From positions 1 to 5,565 of the IMG/VR virus record IMGVR_UViG_2531839474_000014: 5,565 bases of DNA; one strand, given 5' to 3'. Position 1 is the stretch's first letter, and every line of letters begins with the position of its first letter. Under the pieces are notes generated by a model, which was not told the origin of the DNA, made no database searches, and worked only from the letters and a program-made list of their open reading frames with translations. The translations under genes were made by a program, and so were the position numbers. The stretch comes from a virus. Lineage: Duplodnaviria > Heunggongvirae > Uroviricota > Caudoviricetes. Below, piece by piece: positions 1 to 5,052 of this stretch.

Positions 1-17
1 TATCGCGCCCTCAACAA

Positions 18-165
18 TGAGTTTTGTGATGCGGTGCCTGGTGCCTCCAGGTGACGTTAACCAGTTAACAATTAACGCCGGATACAGAGAATCCACCCAT
101 AACACTGTTTTTGGTTTTAACTGTTCCGCGTGCGCTTAGCCGCATTCACCGCATCACAAAATTCA
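18..165 (-). repeat. Long-range inverted repeat: arm 18-36 (tgagttttgtgatgcggtg) and arm 147-165 (caccgcatcacaaaattca), 18 of 19 complementary, about 110 bp apart; lies between the DicF terminator and the presumed dicB-like start
   Basis: Reverse complement of 18-36 is caccgcatcacaaaactca, differing from 147-165 at one position. Would form a long stem in a minus-strand read-through transcript. Confidence 0.55.
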
Positions 166-169
166 CTTT

Positions 170-227
170 AAAAAGGGCGGCAGAGCAGTCACGGAGTAAA
201 ACTGATACCGCCAAACGTCACCAGAAA
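170..227 (-). ncRNA. dicF: DicF-like small RNA (53-nt mature species about 175-227 plus U-tail to about 170), cell-division inhibitor sRNA of the dicB operon
   Basis: Minus-strand sequence TTTCTGGTGACGTTTGGCGGTATCAGTTTTACTCCGTGACTGCTCTGCCGCCC followed by TTTTT matches the E. coli DicF sequence as I recall it (53 nt). GGCGG...CCGCC stem plus U-run gives an intrinsic-terminator-like 3' end. Position downstream of ydfC-like gene matches the Qin order ydfABC-dicF-dicB. Confidence 0.75.
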
Positions 228-568
228 ATTGATAACAGAGGGCGTTGCAGCGGGGTTGTCACTTAAGCGTATGGTCAACCTGACAACCCGGTGTCCTCAA
301 CGGGGGAAGGAATAACCCCGCCATACTTACCGCCGCGCCATTTCGCGGATTGCCACAACCGGAAGCGCACGGTCGACGAAAATTTAACGACAGGCTATCT
401 ATGAACCAGCTACCTCGCCGTGCGCTTTCGCGTTATGGTCTGACTTTTCAGGGAAATATCCTTTCAGTAAACTGTCAGTGCCGGATGCTCACCCGTGTCC
501 GGCGCACGCACTCCACCTCACCCGTGGAGAACTCCTTAATTACCAACCTTAGCTTCGTTGGTTAGCTA

Positions 569-787
569 TTAACGCGGGTATGTAATCATTCTGGCAATGC
601 TTAATGCCGCTGCTTTTTCCAGATTGGTGATATCCTGCTCCAGAGAGAACAGATTTTCAGCCTGCTTAGCCCTGGCTTCATTAGCCCATTTCAGATCCTG
701 CGCTGCATTAATTTTCTGGTGCATCCACTCATAAAGTTCATCATCGGTATAGTCTGGCGCGATGATAACGGGTTCTCGTTTCTGCAT
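569..787 (-). CDS. ydfC: Small prophage protein, YdfC-like (72 aa), function unknown
   Basis: ORF with ATG at 787-785 preceded by GAGGAA 5 nt upstream (minus strand). 72 aa, same size and operon position as Qin YdfC. Symbol assigned from size, order and linkage to dicF, not from sequence alignment. Confidence 0.65.
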   Translation of the reverse strand: MQKREPVIIAPDYTDDELYEWMHQKINAAQDLKWANEARAKQAENLFSLEQDITNLEKAAALSIARMITYPR

Positions 788-816
788 ACTGATTCCTCGC
801 GGTGCTGTTTCGCTTA

Positions 817-945
817 TCAGCCGTTAGATTTTGCCGAACTGGAAAGCGCCTGTTTAAATTCGCTGAAGCTGAGAGCTTCTTCGCCTTCGGCAAGGCCTTC
901 GAAGTATTCTTCGTAAGCCTTTTCCATGATTGTGTCGAAATCCAT
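817..945 (-). CDS. ydfB: Small acidic protein, YdfB-like (42 aa: MDFDTIMEKAYEEYFEGLAEGEEALSFSEFKQALSSSAKSNG); not in the supplied ORF track
   Basis: Hand translation of the third minus frame. ATG at 945-943 preceded by AGGTGG with 5-nt spacer; stop at 819-817. Starts 1 nt after the ydfA-like stop. 42 aa matches the size of Qin YdfB. Confidence 0.6.
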   Translation of the reverse strand: MDFDTIMEKAYEEYFEGLAEGEEALSFSEFKQALSSSAKSNG

Positions 946-946
946 A

Positions 947-1102
947 TCACCCACCTGAATTTCTTTCCAGCCAGCGACGCGCTCCAGATTCGGTTTTAAA
1001 CGTTTTGCTTTTGGTATACGTCATTGCGGTGAACGTGCCGTCCTGGTTTGGAAACACGCCGTACACCAGAGATTCGTTGTTGCCAAGATCGATAGTATCC
1101 AT
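947..1102 (-). CDS. ydfA: Small prophage protein, YdfA-like (51 aa: MDTIDLGNNESLVYGVFPNQDGTFTAMTYTKSKTFKTESGARRWLERNSGG)
   Basis: Internal ATG (1102-1100) of the 947-1156 minus ORF has a GAGG RBS 6 nt upstream; the longer form has none. 51 aa matches Qin YdfA size; first gene after the repressor-controlled leftward promoter. Confidence 0.65.
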   Translation of the reverse strand: MDTIDLGNNESLVYGVFPNQDGTFTAMTYTKSKTFKTESGARRWLERNSGG

Positions 1103-1179
1103 GCTGACCTCATTTCCCCTTAACGCCGGGGTAGCGGAACTGTTTGCTGAGAACACCGTGCGGTGTCTTGATGGAAAAT

Positions 1180-1208
1180 AATTTAGAATAACCTAACATG
1201 AGAGGCAA
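1180..1208 (-). promoter_or_regulatory. Putative sigma70 promoter of the leftward ydfA-ydfB-ydfC-dicF operon (minus strand -35 TTGCCT at 1208-1203, 17-bp spacer, -10 TAAATT at 1185-1180)
   Basis: Hexamers read on the minus strand, each 4 of 6 to consensus. Flanked and overlapped by operator-like TTAG-N6-CTAA sites. Inferred from sequence only. Confidence 0.4.
1183..1196. promoter_or_regulatory. Operator-like site TTAGaataacCTAA overlapping the -10 of the leftward promoter
   Basis: Shares the TTAG-N6-CTAA core with three other sites around the repressor gene. Confidence 0.45.
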
Positions 1209-1215
1209 GTGTTTT

Positions 1216-1235
1216 TTGTTAGATTGATCTAACAA
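1216..1235. promoter_or_regulatory. Perfect palindrome TTGTTAGAT-tg-ATCTAACAA (9-bp arms), candidate repressor operator upstream of the leftward promoter
   Basis: Perfect dyad symmetry seen directly. Core TTAG-N6-CTAA at 1219-1232. Near-identical half-sites recur at 1728-1745 in the dicA-dicC intergenic region. Confidence 0.6.
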
Positions 1236-1270
1236 AAAGGGTGGGCGCAACTAATCACTTGAAAAGAATG

Positions 1271-1678
1271 TTATTTTATTGATTTATTTTTACGCGCTTT
1301 AAGCATTTCTTCGAAGAGTTTGTTGAAGTTTTCTACTCTTGCGCGCATTTCAGACAGCAAGGCTTCCTGCTCGGAAGATGGAAGAGCATCGAATAATTCG
1401 ATCAATTCTTTGTGGTTGGGAGTTAGCTCTGTTTCCACATGAAGTTCTTGTGCAGGCACTGGTGCCTTGTCTTCGTCACCAAACATTAGCCATGTAGGTG
1501 AGCACTTCAGAGCATCCGCTAAAGCAAACAATCGTTTTCCGACTGGCTGGGTTTCGTCTCTTTCCCATTGTGAAATTGTGACGTGAGCAACTCCAGCGAG
1601 GCGCGCGGCTTCTCGTTGTGTTAAGCGTAATTCTTTTCGTCGCGCCAGAACTCGCTGGCCCAGGGTTCTTGTATCCAT
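1271..1678 (-). CDS. dicA: DicA-like XRE-family HTH repressor (CI analogue), 135 aa
   Basis: N-terminal HTH (LRLTQREAARLAGVAHVTISQWERDETQP) and C-terminal half (CSPTW..FGDEDK ... EMRARVENFNKLFEEMLKARK) closely resemble E. coli DicA as recalled, same 135-aa length. The HTH recognition region differs, suggesting different operator specificity. Divergent from a Cro-like gene. Confidence 0.9.
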   Translation of the reverse strand: MDTRTLGQRVLARRKELRLTQREAARLAGVAHVTISQWERDETQPVGKRLFALADALKCSPTWLMFGDEDKAPVPAQELHVETELTPNHKELIELFDALPSSEQEALLSEMRARVENFNKLFEEMLKARKNKSIK

Positions 1679-1680
1679 AG

Positions 1681-1694
1681 TTAGGTAATTCTAA
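1681..1694. promoter_or_regulatory. Operator-like site TTAGgtaattCTAA next to the repressor start codon; overlaps a -10-like TAGAAT on the minus strand
   Basis: TTAG-N6-CTAA core. Minus-strand TAGAAT (complement of 1688-1693) sits 9 nt upstream of the dicA-like ATG, with no Shine-Dalgarno between. Confidence 0.4.
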
Positions 1695-1700
1695 TTTTTC

Positions 1701-1728
1701 TTGACTTAGGTATCCCGCGCACAATAAT
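1701..1728 (+). promoter_or_regulatory. Putative rightward promoter for the Cro-like gene (-35 TTGACT 1701-1706, 16-bp spacer, -10 AATAAT 1723-1728)
   Basis: -35 is 5 of 6 and -10 is 5 of 6 to consensus. The operator palindrome at 1728-1745 overlaps the -10 and predicted start site. Confidence 0.5.
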
Positions 1729-1745
1729 GTTAGAAAAGTCTAACA
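1728..1745. promoter_or_regulatory. Operator palindrome TGTTAG-aaaagt-CTAACA overlapping the rightward promoter
   Basis: Perfect 6-bp inverted arms with the same TGTTAG/CTAACA half-sites as the 1216-1235 palindrome. Confidence 0.6.
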
Positions 1746-1758
1746 AGAGGGGGATTTG

Positions 1759-1986
1759 ATGCTTAAAGTTGACGCAATTACTTTTTTTGGCAGCAAAACA
1801 AAGCTTGCCAATGCCGCAGGAGTGAGGCTGGCAAGTGTTGCTGCTTGGGGGATACTGGTTCCTGAAGGTCGCGCGATGCGTCTACAGGAGGCATCTGGCG
1901 GGGAGCTTCAGTATGATCCCAAAGTTTATGATGAATATCGTAAGACGAAGCGGGCGGGGCGGTTGAACAATGAAAATCACTCCTGA
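1759..1986 (+). CDS. dicC: Cro-like small DNA-binding protein (DicC analogue), about 75 aa
   Basis: Divergent from the repressor. ATG at 1759 with GAGGGGG RBS 5 nt upstream; the ORF-track start at 1756 is a TTG. Small basic protein in the Cro position. Symbol by position, not by verified alignment. Confidence 0.7.
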   Translation: MLKVDAITFFGSKTKLANAAGVRLASVAAWGILVPEGRAMRLQEASGGELQYDPKVYDEYRKTKRAGRLNNENHS

Positions 1987-2491
1987 ACAGGCTCGTGAGG
2001 CTCTGGATGCCTGGATATGTCGACCAGGAATGACACAGGAGCAGGCGACGATATTAATCACTGAAGCATTCTGGGCTTTGAAAGAGCGCCCGAACATCGA
2101 TGTTCAGCGTGTCACAGATGAAGGTGGCGCGGTTGATCAGCGAGCGCTTGGTGTTAATCGAGTGAAGATATTCGAACGCTGGAAGGCTATCGACACCAGG
2201 GATAAGCGTGAAAAGTTCACGGCGCTAGTGCCTGCGATTATGGAGGCTATCCGGATTAGTGATTTCAGGTTGTATCGTGAAATTACTGACGGAAAAAGCA
2301 TCACGTGCATGATCGCCGGGTTAAACAAAGAATATGGCGATGTGGTGGAGTCCGGACTGCTTTTTGCTGATCCTGCCGTAGTGGATCGTGAAACTGACGA
2401 ACTTATAGAAAAAGCAATTGCTTTCAAGCTTGCGTATCGACAGCAATACCAACAAAAAGCTGGATGGAATTATGAGCCTTCTTTTTGCTGA
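1970..2491 (+). CDS. YdaT-like protein (CII-analogue family), 173 aa
   Basis: Overlaps the Cro-like stop by 17 nt, suggesting translational coupling. The segment WKAIDTRDKREKFTALVPAIMEAIRISDFRLY resembles Rac YdaT (WLKGETKTQREKIQKLIPAILAILPRELRHRL) as recalled. Sits where CII would in a lambdoid layout. Confidence 0.6.
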   Translation: MKITPEQAREALDAWICRPGMTQEQATILITEAFWALKERPNIDVQRVTDEGGAVDQRALGVNRVKIFERWKAIDTRDKREKFTALVPAIMEAIRISDFRLYREITDGKSITCMIAGLNKEYGDVVESGLLFADPAVVDRETDELIEKAIAFKLAYRQQYQQKAGWNYEPSFC

Positions 2492-3437
2492 ACGCCCACT
2501 GGTTATAAACACGCAGCTGGCAATGAAAATTGGCTTAAACGAAGCCATTGTTTTGCAACAACTGCACTACTGGTTGAGAGATACCAACTCCGGCATGGAA
2601 TGTGATGGTGTTCGCTGGATTTATAACACAACGGAACAATGGCTGGAACAGTTCCCATTCTGGTCAGAGTCAACGTTAAAGCGCGCGTTTGCAAGTCTGA
2701 AAACGCTGGGGCTTTTGCGTTGTGAAAAGCTCAATAAATCAAAGCGCGATATGACCAATTTCTACACGATCAACTATGGGAGCGAGCTTTTAGATGGTGG
2801 CAAATTGAGCGAATCCATCGGTTCAAAATGCGCCGCTCCATCAGGTCAAAATGACACGATGGAAGAGGTCAAAATGAAACGCTCCATTGGTTCAAAACGA
2901 CTCAATGTCATCGGGTCAAAATGGCCTGATGATCTTACAGAGAATACAACAGAGATTACTACAGAGAATAAAAAGACTTCTCGTCCGGAAGCTTCGCAAC
3001 CGGACCCGCAGACGGTTGAACAGGATTTTTTAACCCGACACCCTGACGCGGTTGTGTTCAGTGCGAAAAAACGCCAGTGGGGCAGCCAGGAAGATTTGGC
3101 GTGTGCGCAGTGGATCTGGGGGCGAATCGTGAGTCTTTACGAGCAGGCCGCCAGCGATGATGGCGAGATTTCGCGACCGAAAGAACCCAACTGGACCGCA
3201 TGGGCCAACGACGTGCGCACAATGCGGATGCTGGATGGCAGAACTCACAGACAAATTTGTGAAATGTTTGGTCGGGTGCAGCGGGATCCATTCTGGGTAA
3301 AAAATATCATGAGTCCGTCAAAGCTTCGCGAAAAATGGGATGAACTGGTTATCCGCCTGGGGCGTTCGTCTGTACAGCGTTGTGTGAATCATATTTCTGA
3401 GCCGGATACCGAAATTCCGCCGGGCTTCAGGGGGTAA
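2472..3437 (+). CDS. Phage replication initiation protein (lambda-O-like organisation) with internal origin and DnaT-like C-terminal tail, 321 aa from the first ATG (alternative TTG start at 2418)
   Basis: Iterons and an AT-rich repeat block lie inside the coding sequence, as in lambda O. C-terminus VNHISEPDTEIPPGFRG matches the C-terminus of E. coli primosomal protein DnaT (...VNTVSEPDSQIPPGFRG) as recalled. Confidence 0.8.
   Translation: MSLLFAERPLVINTQLAMKIGLNEAIVLQQLHYWLRDTNSGMECDGVRWIYNTTEQWLEQFPFWSESTLKRAFASLKTLGLLRCEKLNKSKRDMTNFYTINYGSELLDGGKLSESIGSKCAAPSGQNDTMEEVKMKRSIGSKRLNVIGSKWPDDLTENTTEITTENKKTSRPEASQPDPQTVEQDFLTRHPDAVVFSAKKRQWGSQEDLACAQWIWGRIVSLYEQAASDDGEISRPKEPNWTAWANDVRTMRMLDGRTHRQICEMFGRVQRDPFWVKNIMSPSKLREKWDELVIRLGRSSVQRCVNHISEPDTEIPPGFRG
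2814..2923. repeat. Five direct iterons with core GGT(T/C)CAAAA(T/C)G, ending at 2830, 2853, 2876, 2899 and 2923 (23-24 bp phasing); putative phage origin inside the initiator gene
   Basis: tCCATCGGTTCAAAATG, tCCATCAGGTCAAAATG, gaAGAGGTCAAAATG, tCCATTGGTTCAAAACG, gtCATCGGGTCAAAATG. They encode repeated SIGSK-type peptides in the protein. Confidence 0.75.
2937..2970. repeat. Three 12-bp-phased A+T-rich repeats ACAGAGA(A/T)TA just right of the iterons; candidate DNA-unwinding element
   Basis: ACAGAGAATA at 2937, ACAGAGATTA at 2949, ACAGAGAATA at 2961. Position relative to the iterons mirrors the lambda origin. Confidence 0.55.
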
Positions 3438-3477
3438 GTGTTAATTTCTGGTCATGAGGTAATTTTCAGGAGGGCTT

Positions 3478-3900
3478 GTGGCAAAAGTTTTTACACAAGA
3501 AGAGCGGGAAAAAATTAAAGGGCAGGTTGTTGAACTCGTACGCCGGAGTGGGCGTGAGACGTTACGGCAACTGGAAGTCAAGACAGGTGCGACAAGATAT
3601 CTGATGAGCGTTCTCGCAAGAGAGCTGGTTGCCAGCGGCGATGTATACAACTCTGGTTACGGGTTATTCCCGTCTGAACAGGCGCGTAAGGACTGGCAAA
3701 ATGCCCGTAAAAAGCTCTCAAGGGCAAAGCTGAAGGAACCATCTGCGGTTGATCCGGACCTTATCTGGTCATTACCTGACGGAGAAATACGTCGCTACGA
3801 CAGGCGTCAGAACATAATCTGTCGCGAGTGCCGGAAGAGTGAAGTTATGCAGCGCATACTAGCATTCTATCAGGGAAATGCTCGATATTTATTGAAGTGA
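3478..3900 (+). CDS. Hypothetical prophage protein, 140 aa, GTG start; possible winged-helix-like N-terminus
   Basis: AGGAGG RBS at 3468-3473 upstream of GTG 3478. Composition matches the neighbouring phage genes. Ends with tandem stops TGA TGA. No family recognised. Confidence 0.65.
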   Translation: MAKVFTQEEREKIKGQVVELVRRSGRETLRQLEVKTGATRYLMSVLARELVASGDVYNSGYGLFPSEQARKDWQNARKKLSRAKLKEPSAVDPDLIWSLPDGEIRRYDRRQNIICRECRKSEVMQRILAFYQGNARYLLK

Positions 3901-4082
3901 TGAGATTAAAGTTTATTAGTTCAGATATTGATTGGCTCTTTTGTGGAGTAGGGTAGAGTTAGTGTGTTTGTCTGCTTGGTGCCAGCAGCGGATATGTTTA
4001 ACAACAGAAAGCATTCAGCATGGTTAGTGGATTTGCAAAGTGGATTAGGATTTGAGAAACTTTGATGAAGTTGTAAAGCTTG

Positions 4083-4117
4083 TTTCTATAAAAATAGAAA
4101 TTTAACTAATAGTTAAA
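4083..4117. promoter_or_regulatory. Two adjacent A+T-rich palindromes (TTTCTAT-aaaa-ATAGAAA at 4083-4100; TTTAACT-aat-AGTTAAA at 4101-4117) about 35-70 bp upstream of the orphan ORF; candidate operator or promoter region
   Basis: Perfect 7-bp inverted arms seen directly. Followed by AAGGA RBS (4139-4143) and ATG at 4153. Confidence 0.35.
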
Positions 4118-4152
4118 CACACCTCCAGCTTCATTGAAAAGGATTATTAGCT

Positions 4153-5052
4153 ATGATTGATCCACTTATTAGAAACTTACAGAGTGATATTGCACTACTC
4201 CAGCTTTATATCGCGCAACGCAAACAGGCAGGCTTTCATGACATGGAAAGAATAATTGAGTCATTGACCATCTTTATGTTTCGCGCGCTGAAAATGGGTG
4301 AACTGGTAAACATGAATCAGATTAAAGTTAATTTTCCCGCCATTGATTTAGCTGATAATAAAAACATGATAGCAGTTCAAGTTACTACGAATGCAAGTCC
4401 AGCAAAAATTAAAAAAACTATCGAATCTTTTGAGAAAATAAATGAAATAGGAGAGAGTCTGAAAGATAAATACTCTACTTTATATATTTTTGGTTTTTGT
4501 AAAGCCTCAAGATACCTAACTCCAAGTTATTGTAAAATAATCGACCCCAGCTATTTCGTGAATGAACTTTGCGATAAAGCAGATGAAGATATGGTCCAGG
4601 ATATGATTGACGCCATTCGACGCCATCATGATTATACATCATTACATCCATGGAGTGATAAAGATTCACTCGAAATTATACTCAATATTATTAATCGCAA
4701 TGCAATAAAACATCGGATGAGTTGCGAAGGCAGTCTGTCTGATATGCTCACTGGTTTAAAAGAAATTAATGAAGTAATTACAAAAGGAACAATTCAACGT
4801 AAGCAACGTTCAAAATCGATATCTGACTTCAAAGATCAAAGCATGGTGAAATTTATGAGAGGTGTAATGGATGATTTGTCTGTTATTCAAGCCATAGTGA
4901 ACAAATCTAAAGTTAACCAAGGTGATATGGTTTATATAAGCCATGAAGATATGATTAATATTGATAAATTAAAAGCTAAAATAGCAAGTGATTCATCAGA
5001 GATTGCAAGGCTAAATAATATTGATATAACACTAAATGTTGTTGATTTATAA
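4153..5052 (+). CDS. Orphan low-GC protein, 299 aa, function unknown; candidate accessory (defence or abortive-infection type) gene
   Basis: Long uninterrupted ORF with AAGGA RBS 9 nt upstream. G+C roughly 30-35 percent by eye against about 50 percent in flanking genes. No catalytic motif recognised. N-terminal segment NFPAIDLADNKNMIAVQVTTNASPAKIKK loosely recalls N-terminal domains of conflict-system proteins (unverified). Confidence 0.8.
   Translation: MIDPLIRNLQSDIALLQLYIAQRKQAGFHDMERIIESLTIFMFRALKMGELVNMNQIKVNFPAIDLADNKNMIAVQVTTNASPAKIKKTIESFEKINEIGESLKDKYSTLYIFGFCKASRYLTPSYCKIIDPSYFVNELCDKADEDMVQDMIDAIRRHHDYTSLHPWSDKDSLEIILNIINRNAIKHRMSCEGSLSDMLTGLKEINEVITKGTIQRKQRSKSISDFKDQSMVKFMRGVMDDLSVIQAIVNKSKVNQGDMVYISHEDMINIDKLKAKIASDSSEIARLNNIDITLNVVDL

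Follow-up and report, generated by a model that had tools for sequence, protein, structure and literature searches.

Phage immunity operators of the DicA/DicC type and the lambda OR/OL sites are perfect or near-perfect dyads of 17-18 bp with 3-4 bp spacers, placed on a promoter; structured 5' leaders, such as RNA thermometers and 5' stabiliser hairpins, are compact A/U-rich multi-helix folds ending right before the ribosome-binding site (RBS). Quasipalindrome template switching, which can create or perfect hairpins in a single event, is an established and well-documented mutation hotspot mechanism in E. coli (PMC7202029). We describe twin palindromes, P1 (4083-4100) and P2 (4101-4117), in a 5,565-nt stretch of Caudoviricetes DNA (positions 1 to 5,565 of IMG/VR record IMGVR_UViG_2531839474_000014, hereafter the window), which is the early region of a Qin/Rac-like lambdoid prophage; the palindromes stand in the leader of a gene for a SMEK_N-domain protein (4153-5052, plus strand, 299 amino acids), the cargo of a mobile cassette. 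P1 and P2 have the size and spacing of immunity operators, and lie where relatives carry a putative promoter, but share no half-site, are unrepeated, are unconserved in orthologous leaders and lack a linked repressor gene. The leader RNA is predicted from sequence to resemble structured 5' leaders in its compact A/U-rich fold, which likewise ends right before the RBS, yet here the RBS lies outside the pairing, Rfam offers no match and the fold is confined to one allele. As with such template-switch mutations, imperfect repeats have been perfected in a lineage-specific manner and a relative carries a multi-base cluster of changes, whereas in the window both arms were altered and a long-range stem was repaired by four isolated substitutions with its wobble pairs kept. 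Overall, this locus is a lineage-specific structural remodelling of a moron leader.

P1 reads TTTCTAT-AAAA-ATAGAAA, with arms at 4083-4089 and 4094-4100 that are 100% complementary across a 4-nt spacer, and P2 reads TTTAACTA-A-TAGTTAAA, with arms at 4101-4108 and 4110-4117 that are also 100% complementary and can be taken as 8-bp arms with a 1-nt spacer or equally as 7-bp arms with a 3-nt spacer. No gap separates the two, and P1 begins 70 nt before the ATG. A Shine-Dalgarno sequence, AAGGA (4139-4143, plus strand), stands 9 nt before the ATG at 4153, and the RBS block AAAAGGATTATTAGCTATG is nearly invariant among relatives. Direct reading and a repeat finder thus confirmed what a preliminary description had reported, namely two perfect back-to-back palindromes lying within about 70 bp of the start codon and followed by an AAGGA RBS; RefSeq places the start at the same ATG in E. 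coli C7. When only perfect palindromes were counted whose arms span 7 bp or more and whose spacer does not exceed 6 nt, and dinucleotide shuffles served as the null, 0.14 palindromes were expected in the 252-bp intergenic region, the probability of two or more was 0.010 and that of two within 5 nt was 0.001; across the whole window the probability of an adjacent palindrome pair was 0.008. Only seven palindromes in the whole window qualify, two of which are likely immunity operators. The P1/P2 pair is unlikely to be a product of chance.

Folding of positions 4060-4165 (106 nt) as RNA predicts a three-way junction with a minimum free energy (MFE) of -24.7 kcal/mol (z -3.9 to -4.2) and a centroid identical to the MFE structure, and the junction persists when folded in 211-nt and 321-nt contexts. 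The equivalent region of all 15 diverged leader variants gives z values between -1.0 and +1.5. The junction is closed by a 13-bp outer stem in which the 5' arm UUUGAUGAAGUUG (4061-4073, plus strand) pairs, in both MFE and centroid, with the 3' arm CAGCUUCAUUGAA (4126-4138, plus strand), the latter ending 1 nt before the RBS. The outer stem encloses the P1 and P2 hairpins and contains three G.U pairs, which are tolerable only in plus-strand RNA; its duplex energy of -14.4 kcal/mol compares with -6.9 +/- 2.5 kcal/mol for shuffled flanks (P=0.008) and -4.0 kcal/mol for ancestral flanks. As RNA, P1 forms an 8-bp hairpin at 4082-4101 that includes one G.U pair (-3.2 kcal/mol, z -4.1), and P2 folds at -2.0 kcal/mol (z -3.3). 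With DNA parameters the twin hairpins are kept (z -3.7) and the outer stem is weaker on both strands. Polymorphisms within the allele, comprising a P1 loop change from AAAA to AAA, C4079T and one upstream change, all three fall at unpaired positions. An Rfam search returned no credible family, the best scores being 12-20 bits against gathering scores of 36-80 (E 0.5-7), all from eukaryotic or viral families.

The SMEK gene occurs in 152 of 5426 complete E. coli genomes, 146 of which have the window allele, and a 91-nt core (4055-4145) is 100% identical in all 146. Diverged alleles, with 76-87% nucleotide identity over the aligned cassette and 79-92% in the coding sequence, were found in other E. 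coli islands, a Pectobacterium genome, a contig filed under Streptomyces, IMG/VR contigs and gut metagenomes. Among 20 distinct leader sequence variants (identified below by L numbers), 15 are of the diverged type, and P1 and P2 themselves are absent from all 15, alleles of 84-92% identity included. The position of P1 is occupied by TTAATAT(A/G/C)A(A/C)AACAAGAAA in the L039, L027, L005, L002 and L026 groups, and only the Pectobacterium variant L006 has a P1-like dyad, TTTATAT-AAAT-ATATAAA. At the position of P2 all relatives except L026 carry TTAAACTAACAGTC(A/C)AA or something more different, typically TTAAACTAACAGTCAAA, in which five of seven arm positions are complementary; L026 has TTTAACTAATGGTTAAA, with 6-bp arms. 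The parts of the leader that are conserved are the blocks TTGATGAAATTGTAAAGCTTGTTAATAT and AAATTAAACTAACAGTC and the RBS block, and three lineage-specific palindromes are found across its alleles: that of the window, that of L006, and CTTGTT-N8-AACAAG in most others. A long-range inverted repeat in L039 (8 bp, AGCTTGTT/AACAAGCT) and L002 (6 bp, GAGCTT/AAGCTC) encloses the region equivalent to P1 and P2; it aligns to window 4077-4084 and to a 14-nt segment deleted in the window, where the right arm was lost via a deletion between CAAA repeats.

In a tree of coding sequences the window allele, the L039 cluster and the L002 group nest together, L006/L034 and L003/L045 falling outside, and pairwise distances place about 5.5% divergence in the coding region on the window branch. 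The segment 4060-4152 departs from the inferred ancestor at ten substituted sites (4061, 4070, 4085, 4086, 4095, 4103, 4110, 4114, 4127 and 4132), each with a different base that is common to the relatives, and by two deletions, one of 1 nt and the 14-nt loss between CAAA repeats. Base pairs are added by nine of these substitutions and by the shorter deletion, while the remaining substitution, at 4110, lengthens the arms of P2 to 8 bp at the DNA level; reversion of any one of the nine pair-forming substitutions costs 0.9-6.5 kcal/mol. A latent helix paired at 9 of 13 positions was completed by four substitutions in the flanks, which correct precisely its four mismatches and give the 13-bp outer stem. 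When the same number or types of random changes were simulated on the ancestor, the stability of the window was reached in 0.07-0.11% of 10,000 trials, and four random flank substitutions reached the observed outer-stem duplex energy in 0 of 20,000 trials, P values that are post hoc and presuppose the reconstructed ancestor. The pattern of changes is clearly non-random with respect to pairing.

These changes fall on what looks like the cassette's own promoter. Relatives carry a sigma-70-like element, TTGATR-N16-TGnTAATAT, with an extended -10, which corresponds to the conserved block TTGATGAAATTGTAAAGCTTGTTAATAT and aligns to window 4062-4089. A consensus scan called TTGATA-N16-TAATAT with an upstream TG at the aligned position in L002, and a position weight matrix (PWM), built from classical sigma-70 base frequencies, ranked the same element among the top candidates in five groups (L026, L039, L002, L005, L034); L045 has TTGATG-N17-TAGAGT there. 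The window retains a remnant (4062-4089, plus strand) comprising the -35 TTGATG at 4062-4067, a 16-nt spacer, TG at 4081-4082 and TTCTAT in the -10 position at 4084-4089. The substitutions that took the -10 box from TAATAT to TTCTAT also gave P1 its left arm, and they removed the conserved A at position 2, a base that sigma-70 promoters as a rule require. P1 thus has its left arm on the -10 position, and the outer stem has its left arm on the -35 position. Within 3900-4152 of the window the consensus scan found no promoter-like site and PWM scores stayed within the shuffled range, while in the prophage backbone the PWM picked out TTGGCT-N16-TAGAGT at 3932-3959 as a candidate. From the lost -10 base and the scan we infer that the old cassette promoter is crippled in the window allele.

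We tentatively read the twin palindromes as parts of an allele-specific cis-acting structure that replaces the private promoter of the cassette and damps or conditions its expression. Such a structure is favored because each palindrome was altered in both of its arms, the substitutions in the outer stem are isolated single bases on either arm and wobbles were kept, which fits selection on plus-strand RNA pairing; it accounts for the mutation pattern, with its loss of the -10 and its long-range stem containing G.U pairs, better than a protein site does. Since the palindromes occur in one recent E. coli prophage allele only, where they overwrite the promoter of relatives, they look like a local structure of recent origin, as opposed to a conserved binding site for a repressor. 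The ten substitutions and the 1-nt deletion converted the -10 box, created P1 and P2 and completed the outer stem (4061-4073/4126-4138) on the putative old promoter and leader, and the SMEK gene would now be read mainly from upstream, through read-through from the prophage early operon or from the candidate promoter at 3932-3959. The leader RNA would then fold into a compact three-way junction next to the RBS, so that a nuclease-domain protein that may be toxic is made at a low level or under certain conditions only. A minimum version at the DNA level is that the same changes may simply inactivate or occlude the old promoter, and a dedicated repressor would not be required. An effect on expression is plausible because the dyads are non-random and lie on what relatives show to be the promoter and leader, the left arm of P1 being at the -10 position and that of the enclosing stem at the -35 position; the structure is presumed to form in vivo and to lower expression. 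A functional structure would mean that a mobile gene for a nuclease-domain protein, possibly a toxic one, was tamed in a prophage by a rebuilt leader and not by a recruited repressor, and the alleles with and without the structure would constitute a tractable natural pair for studying the origin of cis-regulatory RNA or DNA structures.

Several observations weigh against this reading. The structure is present in one allele only, with a 91-nt core that is invariant in its 146 E. coli genomes and without covariation support: within the allele covariation is unobtainable because all 146 are identical over 4055-4145, and across the family there is none, the pairs that mark P1, P2 and the outer stem being unpaired in 8-9 of 13 distinct rows. 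When the pairs of the window allele were mapped onto the family alignment, 70% of cells were paired compared with 68% in shuffles. The single hairpins are A/U-rich and weak at the energies given above, the RBS is not sequestered by the junction, and the outer stem is impossible if the transcript starts downstream of 4061. The 14-nt deletion is not stabilizing, as its re-insertion lowers the MFE further, and it was rejected as a structure-building step. The simulation P values are optimistic because the hypothesis was formed after the fold had been seen. PWM scores of the family promoter lie within the range of shuffled AT-rich sequence, so that the case for a promoter in relatives rests on positional conservation, and the toxicity of the SMEK protein is assumed from family annotation. 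Finally, template switching can perfect palindromes without selection and has clearly acted in a relative, L027.

This last point leads to a serious alternative, a mutational by-product without function, in which imperfect repeats in an AT-rich, weakly constrained leader were perfected by drift and template switching (quasipalindrome correction); both the palindromes and the damage to the promoter would then be tolerated and not selected. L027 carries five consecutive substitutions, from CCTTGATGAA to CCTAATCTAA, that form the exact complement of an upstream segment, a classic template-switch signature within this leader; the resulting palindrome, AGATTAGGTTT-TGAG-AAACCTAATCT, has 11-bp arms (L027 ~2371-2396, equivalent to window ~4040-4070) and overwrites the TTGATG -35 box. 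Different lineage-specific palindromes occupy the leader in different alleles, with neither conservation nor covariation across the family, and the ancestor of P2 was already a quasipalindrome (TTAAACT/AGTCAAA, complementary at five of seven arm positions), as was the ancestor of the outer stem at nine of 13 positions. In the left arm of P1 two adjacent bases went from AA to TC, matching what is complementary to the right arm. Copying of this kind sits less comfortably with the finding that both arms changed in P1 and in P2, and therefore at least two events would be needed for each, or with the outer-stem changes, which are isolated single bases, two per arm and 55-70 nt apart. Three G.U positions were left uncorrected, which is unexpected for copying from the opposite arm, and nine of ten substitutions are pair-forming, with a simulated probability of ~0.001. 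We consider a template-switch origin possible but, on balance, somewhat unlikely. Were it correct, the window would supply a clean bacterial example of promoters being disabled by this class of mutation and a caution against calling perfect palindromes in AT-rich leaders operators. Either way, annotators should note that it is the promoter block, the RBS block and a junction hairpin at the cassette edge (described below) that are conserved here, and that the palindromes are not among them.

The cis-acting structure that we favor also has a stronger form, in which the window allele is a recent de novo structured leader RNA: ten point changes within ~5% divergence would have turned a promoter into a three-way junction beside the RBS of a nuclease-like defense gene and shifted control away from a private promoter to read-through and RNA structure. 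In this full form the proposal is rather unlikely. If true, it would be a rare natural case of stepwise adaptive construction of an RNA fold that is legible from living alleles, including intermediates such as L026.

The preliminary description had proposed instead a repressor-controlled promoter, which would fit a gene that is costly to express; on this model P1 and P2 are operator dyads for one trans-acting repressor or two, of host or prophage origin, that shut off an overlapping promoter. Part of that proposal stands, in that the dyads are non-random and lie on the family promoter and leader. They are perfect, of operator-like size (17-18 bp) and commoner than chance (P=0.01 for two in the spacer), and P1 covers the -10 position and the likely start region of the putative family promoter. 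Moreover, the window contains two immunity-type dyads of the form TGTTAGA-N4-TCTAACA, with perfect 7-bp arms and a 4-nt spacer, at 1216-1235 (TTGTTAGATTGATCTAACAA) and 1728-1745 (TGTTAGAAAAGTCTAACA), which are probably the immunity operators of the prophage, and because these operators have 7-bp arms and a 4-nt spacer this dyad format is one in use by this phage. What did not hold up are the tests of half-site, recurrence, conservation and regulator linkage. The half-sites are unrelated (TTTCTAT in P1, TTTAACT in P2), and therefore no single dimeric repressor accounts for both; a center-to-center distance of 17.5 bp puts P1 and P2 on different helix faces. Both sequences differ from the DicA-type dyads, which occur at 1216-1235 and 1728-1745 only, and DicA-type operator identity was rejected by sequence. 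A search of 19 kb of prophage for further copies of P1 or P2, allowing up to three mismatches, found no more than chance would give; orthologous leaders lack the palindromes, and no regulator is linked to the cassette in any context inspected. The mutations that create P1 damage the very -10 box that would be regulated, and the outer stem is left unexplained. Operator function for P1 and P2 is accordingly improbable. The statement that no regulator gene is visible in the window is nevertheless incorrect, as genes for a DicA-like helix-turn-helix repressor (1271-1678, minus strand) and a Cro/DicC-like protein (1756-1986) are present; it is their dyads that are unrelated to P1 and P2. One of the immunity-type dyads lies 3' of the DicA-like gene and the other in the divergent repressor/cro intergenic region, so that the pair flanks the repressor gene.

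H-NS silences AT-rich horizontally acquired genes in E. coli, and the leader (GC ~0.32) might be a target of H-NS, Fis or IHF, the palindromic symmetry being incidental. The cassette and its open reading frame at 4153-5052 do sit in an AT-rich stretch (GC 0.28-0.38 versus ~0.5 in flanking phage genes), with dense A-tracts and TpA steps at 4085-4117, but the pair-forming nature of the changes goes unexplained and relatives are equally AT-rich without the palindromes, which makes xenogeneic silencing a quite improbable account of them. An intrinsic terminator or insulator that halts prophage early transcription before the SMEK gene, as two consecutive hairpins between two co-directional genes might suggest, is very improbable and was rejected, as each stem has one G-C pair, no U tract follows, the hairpins reach only -2 to -3 kcal/mol and a scan of 3900-4152 called no terminator.

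Three further ideas were set aside. The C-boxes of restriction-modification controller (C) proteins, considered as a lead only, are tandem GACT-N3-AGTC dyads upstream of C and nuclease genes, and they share with P1 and P2 the placement of tandem dyads shortly before a nuclease-like gene that would do harm if expressed too early, together with AACT-AAC-AGTC in relatives and AACT-AAT-AGTT at P2 of the window. Unlike C-box systems, the cassette has no gene for a C protein (a small helix-turn-helix protein) and only one GACT-like dyad, and the adjacent methyltransferase is of the class I small-molecule type, outside the DNA methylase families, on the opposite strand and not consistently linked; the idea was rejected. 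A single-strand (Frpo-like) promoter, raised as the -35 and -10 remnants fall in helices, was dropped, the allele being confined to a double-stranded DNA prophage and the boxes lying in different helices. Embedding in an operon was rejected as the cause of the changes, as several relatives with an intact promoter also lie 220-265 nt after a co-directional gene.

The cassette itself resembles the morons and defense cassettes of prophages. It is an AT-rich single gene with its own upstream region at a cargo hotspot, inserted in the window after the DUF977 gene (3478-3900), and it is also found in islands beside integrases, resolvases and toxin-antitoxin genes. Homology to diverged alleles starts at window 3964-3981 in all contexts and homology to Qin-like prophages with different cargo ends at ~3995, boundaries from which it follows that this is a single-gene cassette moving with ~190 bp of its own upstream DNA. 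Gene and leader occur together in unrelated contexts (prophage, integrase islands, insertion sequence (IS)-flanked sites, a Pectobacterium genome) and differ in GC from their surroundings, as expected of a moron or defense cassette. Its neighbors are IS elements, integrases, resolvases, toxin-antitoxin genes and phage structural genes; no regulator gene was found beside it in the more than ten genomic contexts inspected. A phage database held no record of the cassette, the matches being limited to the 3' end of DUF977 and the backbone. At the left cassette edge, where the two homology tracts overlap, lies a GC-rich hairpin, GTCTGCT..AGCGGAT (3970-3993, plus strand), with an RNA MFE of -10.7 kcal/mol and no clear U tract, which looks like a cassette-exchange junction or a weak terminator. 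Its arms co-vary as GTCCGCC/GGCGGAC, GTCTGCT/AGCAGAC and GTCCGCT/AGCGGAC (including L039, L027, L042, L006 and the UTI89 locus L058), and the hairpin also follows DUF977 in prophages with other cargo.

The cargo had been called an orphan open reading frame, a label that no longer applies because its SMEK_N matches exceed curated cut-offs (Pfam PF21941, 2.2e-22, 79.9 bits against a cut-off of 27; NCBIfam NF033859, 1.3e-30, 105 bits against 30). RefSeq annotates the gene in E. coli C7 as a SMEK domain-containing protein, and with PADLOC the N-terminal 140 amino acids match the pAgo-associated restriction endonuclease (REase) model (1.4e-20). SMEK is regarded as the nuclease domain of short-pAgo partner proteins (PMC10810196). 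Full-length homologues of ~300 amino acids number 108 across Proteobacteria, and E36, D65, Q76, T78 and K85 are invariant in a sample of 35. The C-terminal 180 amino acids are helical with no Pfam match, and an AlphaFold2 model (predicted local distance difference test score 85) found no significant neighbor in the PDB, with matches to REase-like folds being weak (E ~2-4). The protein is nuclease-like and potentially toxic or costly, the toxicity being assumed from family annotation. Stand-alone SMEK proteins, unlike defense cassettes, are not known to act against phage, the studied context being SMEK-APAZ/short-pAgo only (PMC10810196). Some sources use the family label 'regulator' for stand-alone SMEK proteins. 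In E. coli matches H96-H99 and H121, from chicken isolates, the SMEK locus has one base missing and is annotated as two coding sequences (a hypothetical and a SMEK domain protein), which suggests that these copies are frameshifted and inactivated. At the start of the gene a hairpin, GGAUUAUUA....UGAUUGAUCC (window 4141-4163), is predicted to pair part of the RBS and enclose the AUG; it is also predicted in L006 and L026, and alleles whose codons 3-4 contain GACCC or GCCCC have a weaker version of it.

Elsewhere in the window, genes for a YdaT-like protein (1970-2491) and a replication-type protein (2418-3437) lie between the Cro/DicC-like and DUF977 genes. The same order is annotated in E. coli C7 (dicA, dicC, YdaT family, hypothetical, DUF977, SMEK domain-containing protein), where the prophage is integrated beside a tRNA-Ser gene. 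Positions 1352-1847, covering the repressor, operator and start of cro, are unalignable with the C7 prophage (L001), which elsewhere is 94-99% identical; by this comparison the immunity module of the prophage is a mosaic. The window diverges from C7 after 5354, where C7 has a convergent gene for a class I S-adenosylmethionine-dependent methyltransferase and a hypothetical gene, and an end of IS1414 (IS256 family) occupies ~5350-5565 of the window, inserted ~300 nt downstream of the SMEK stop codon.

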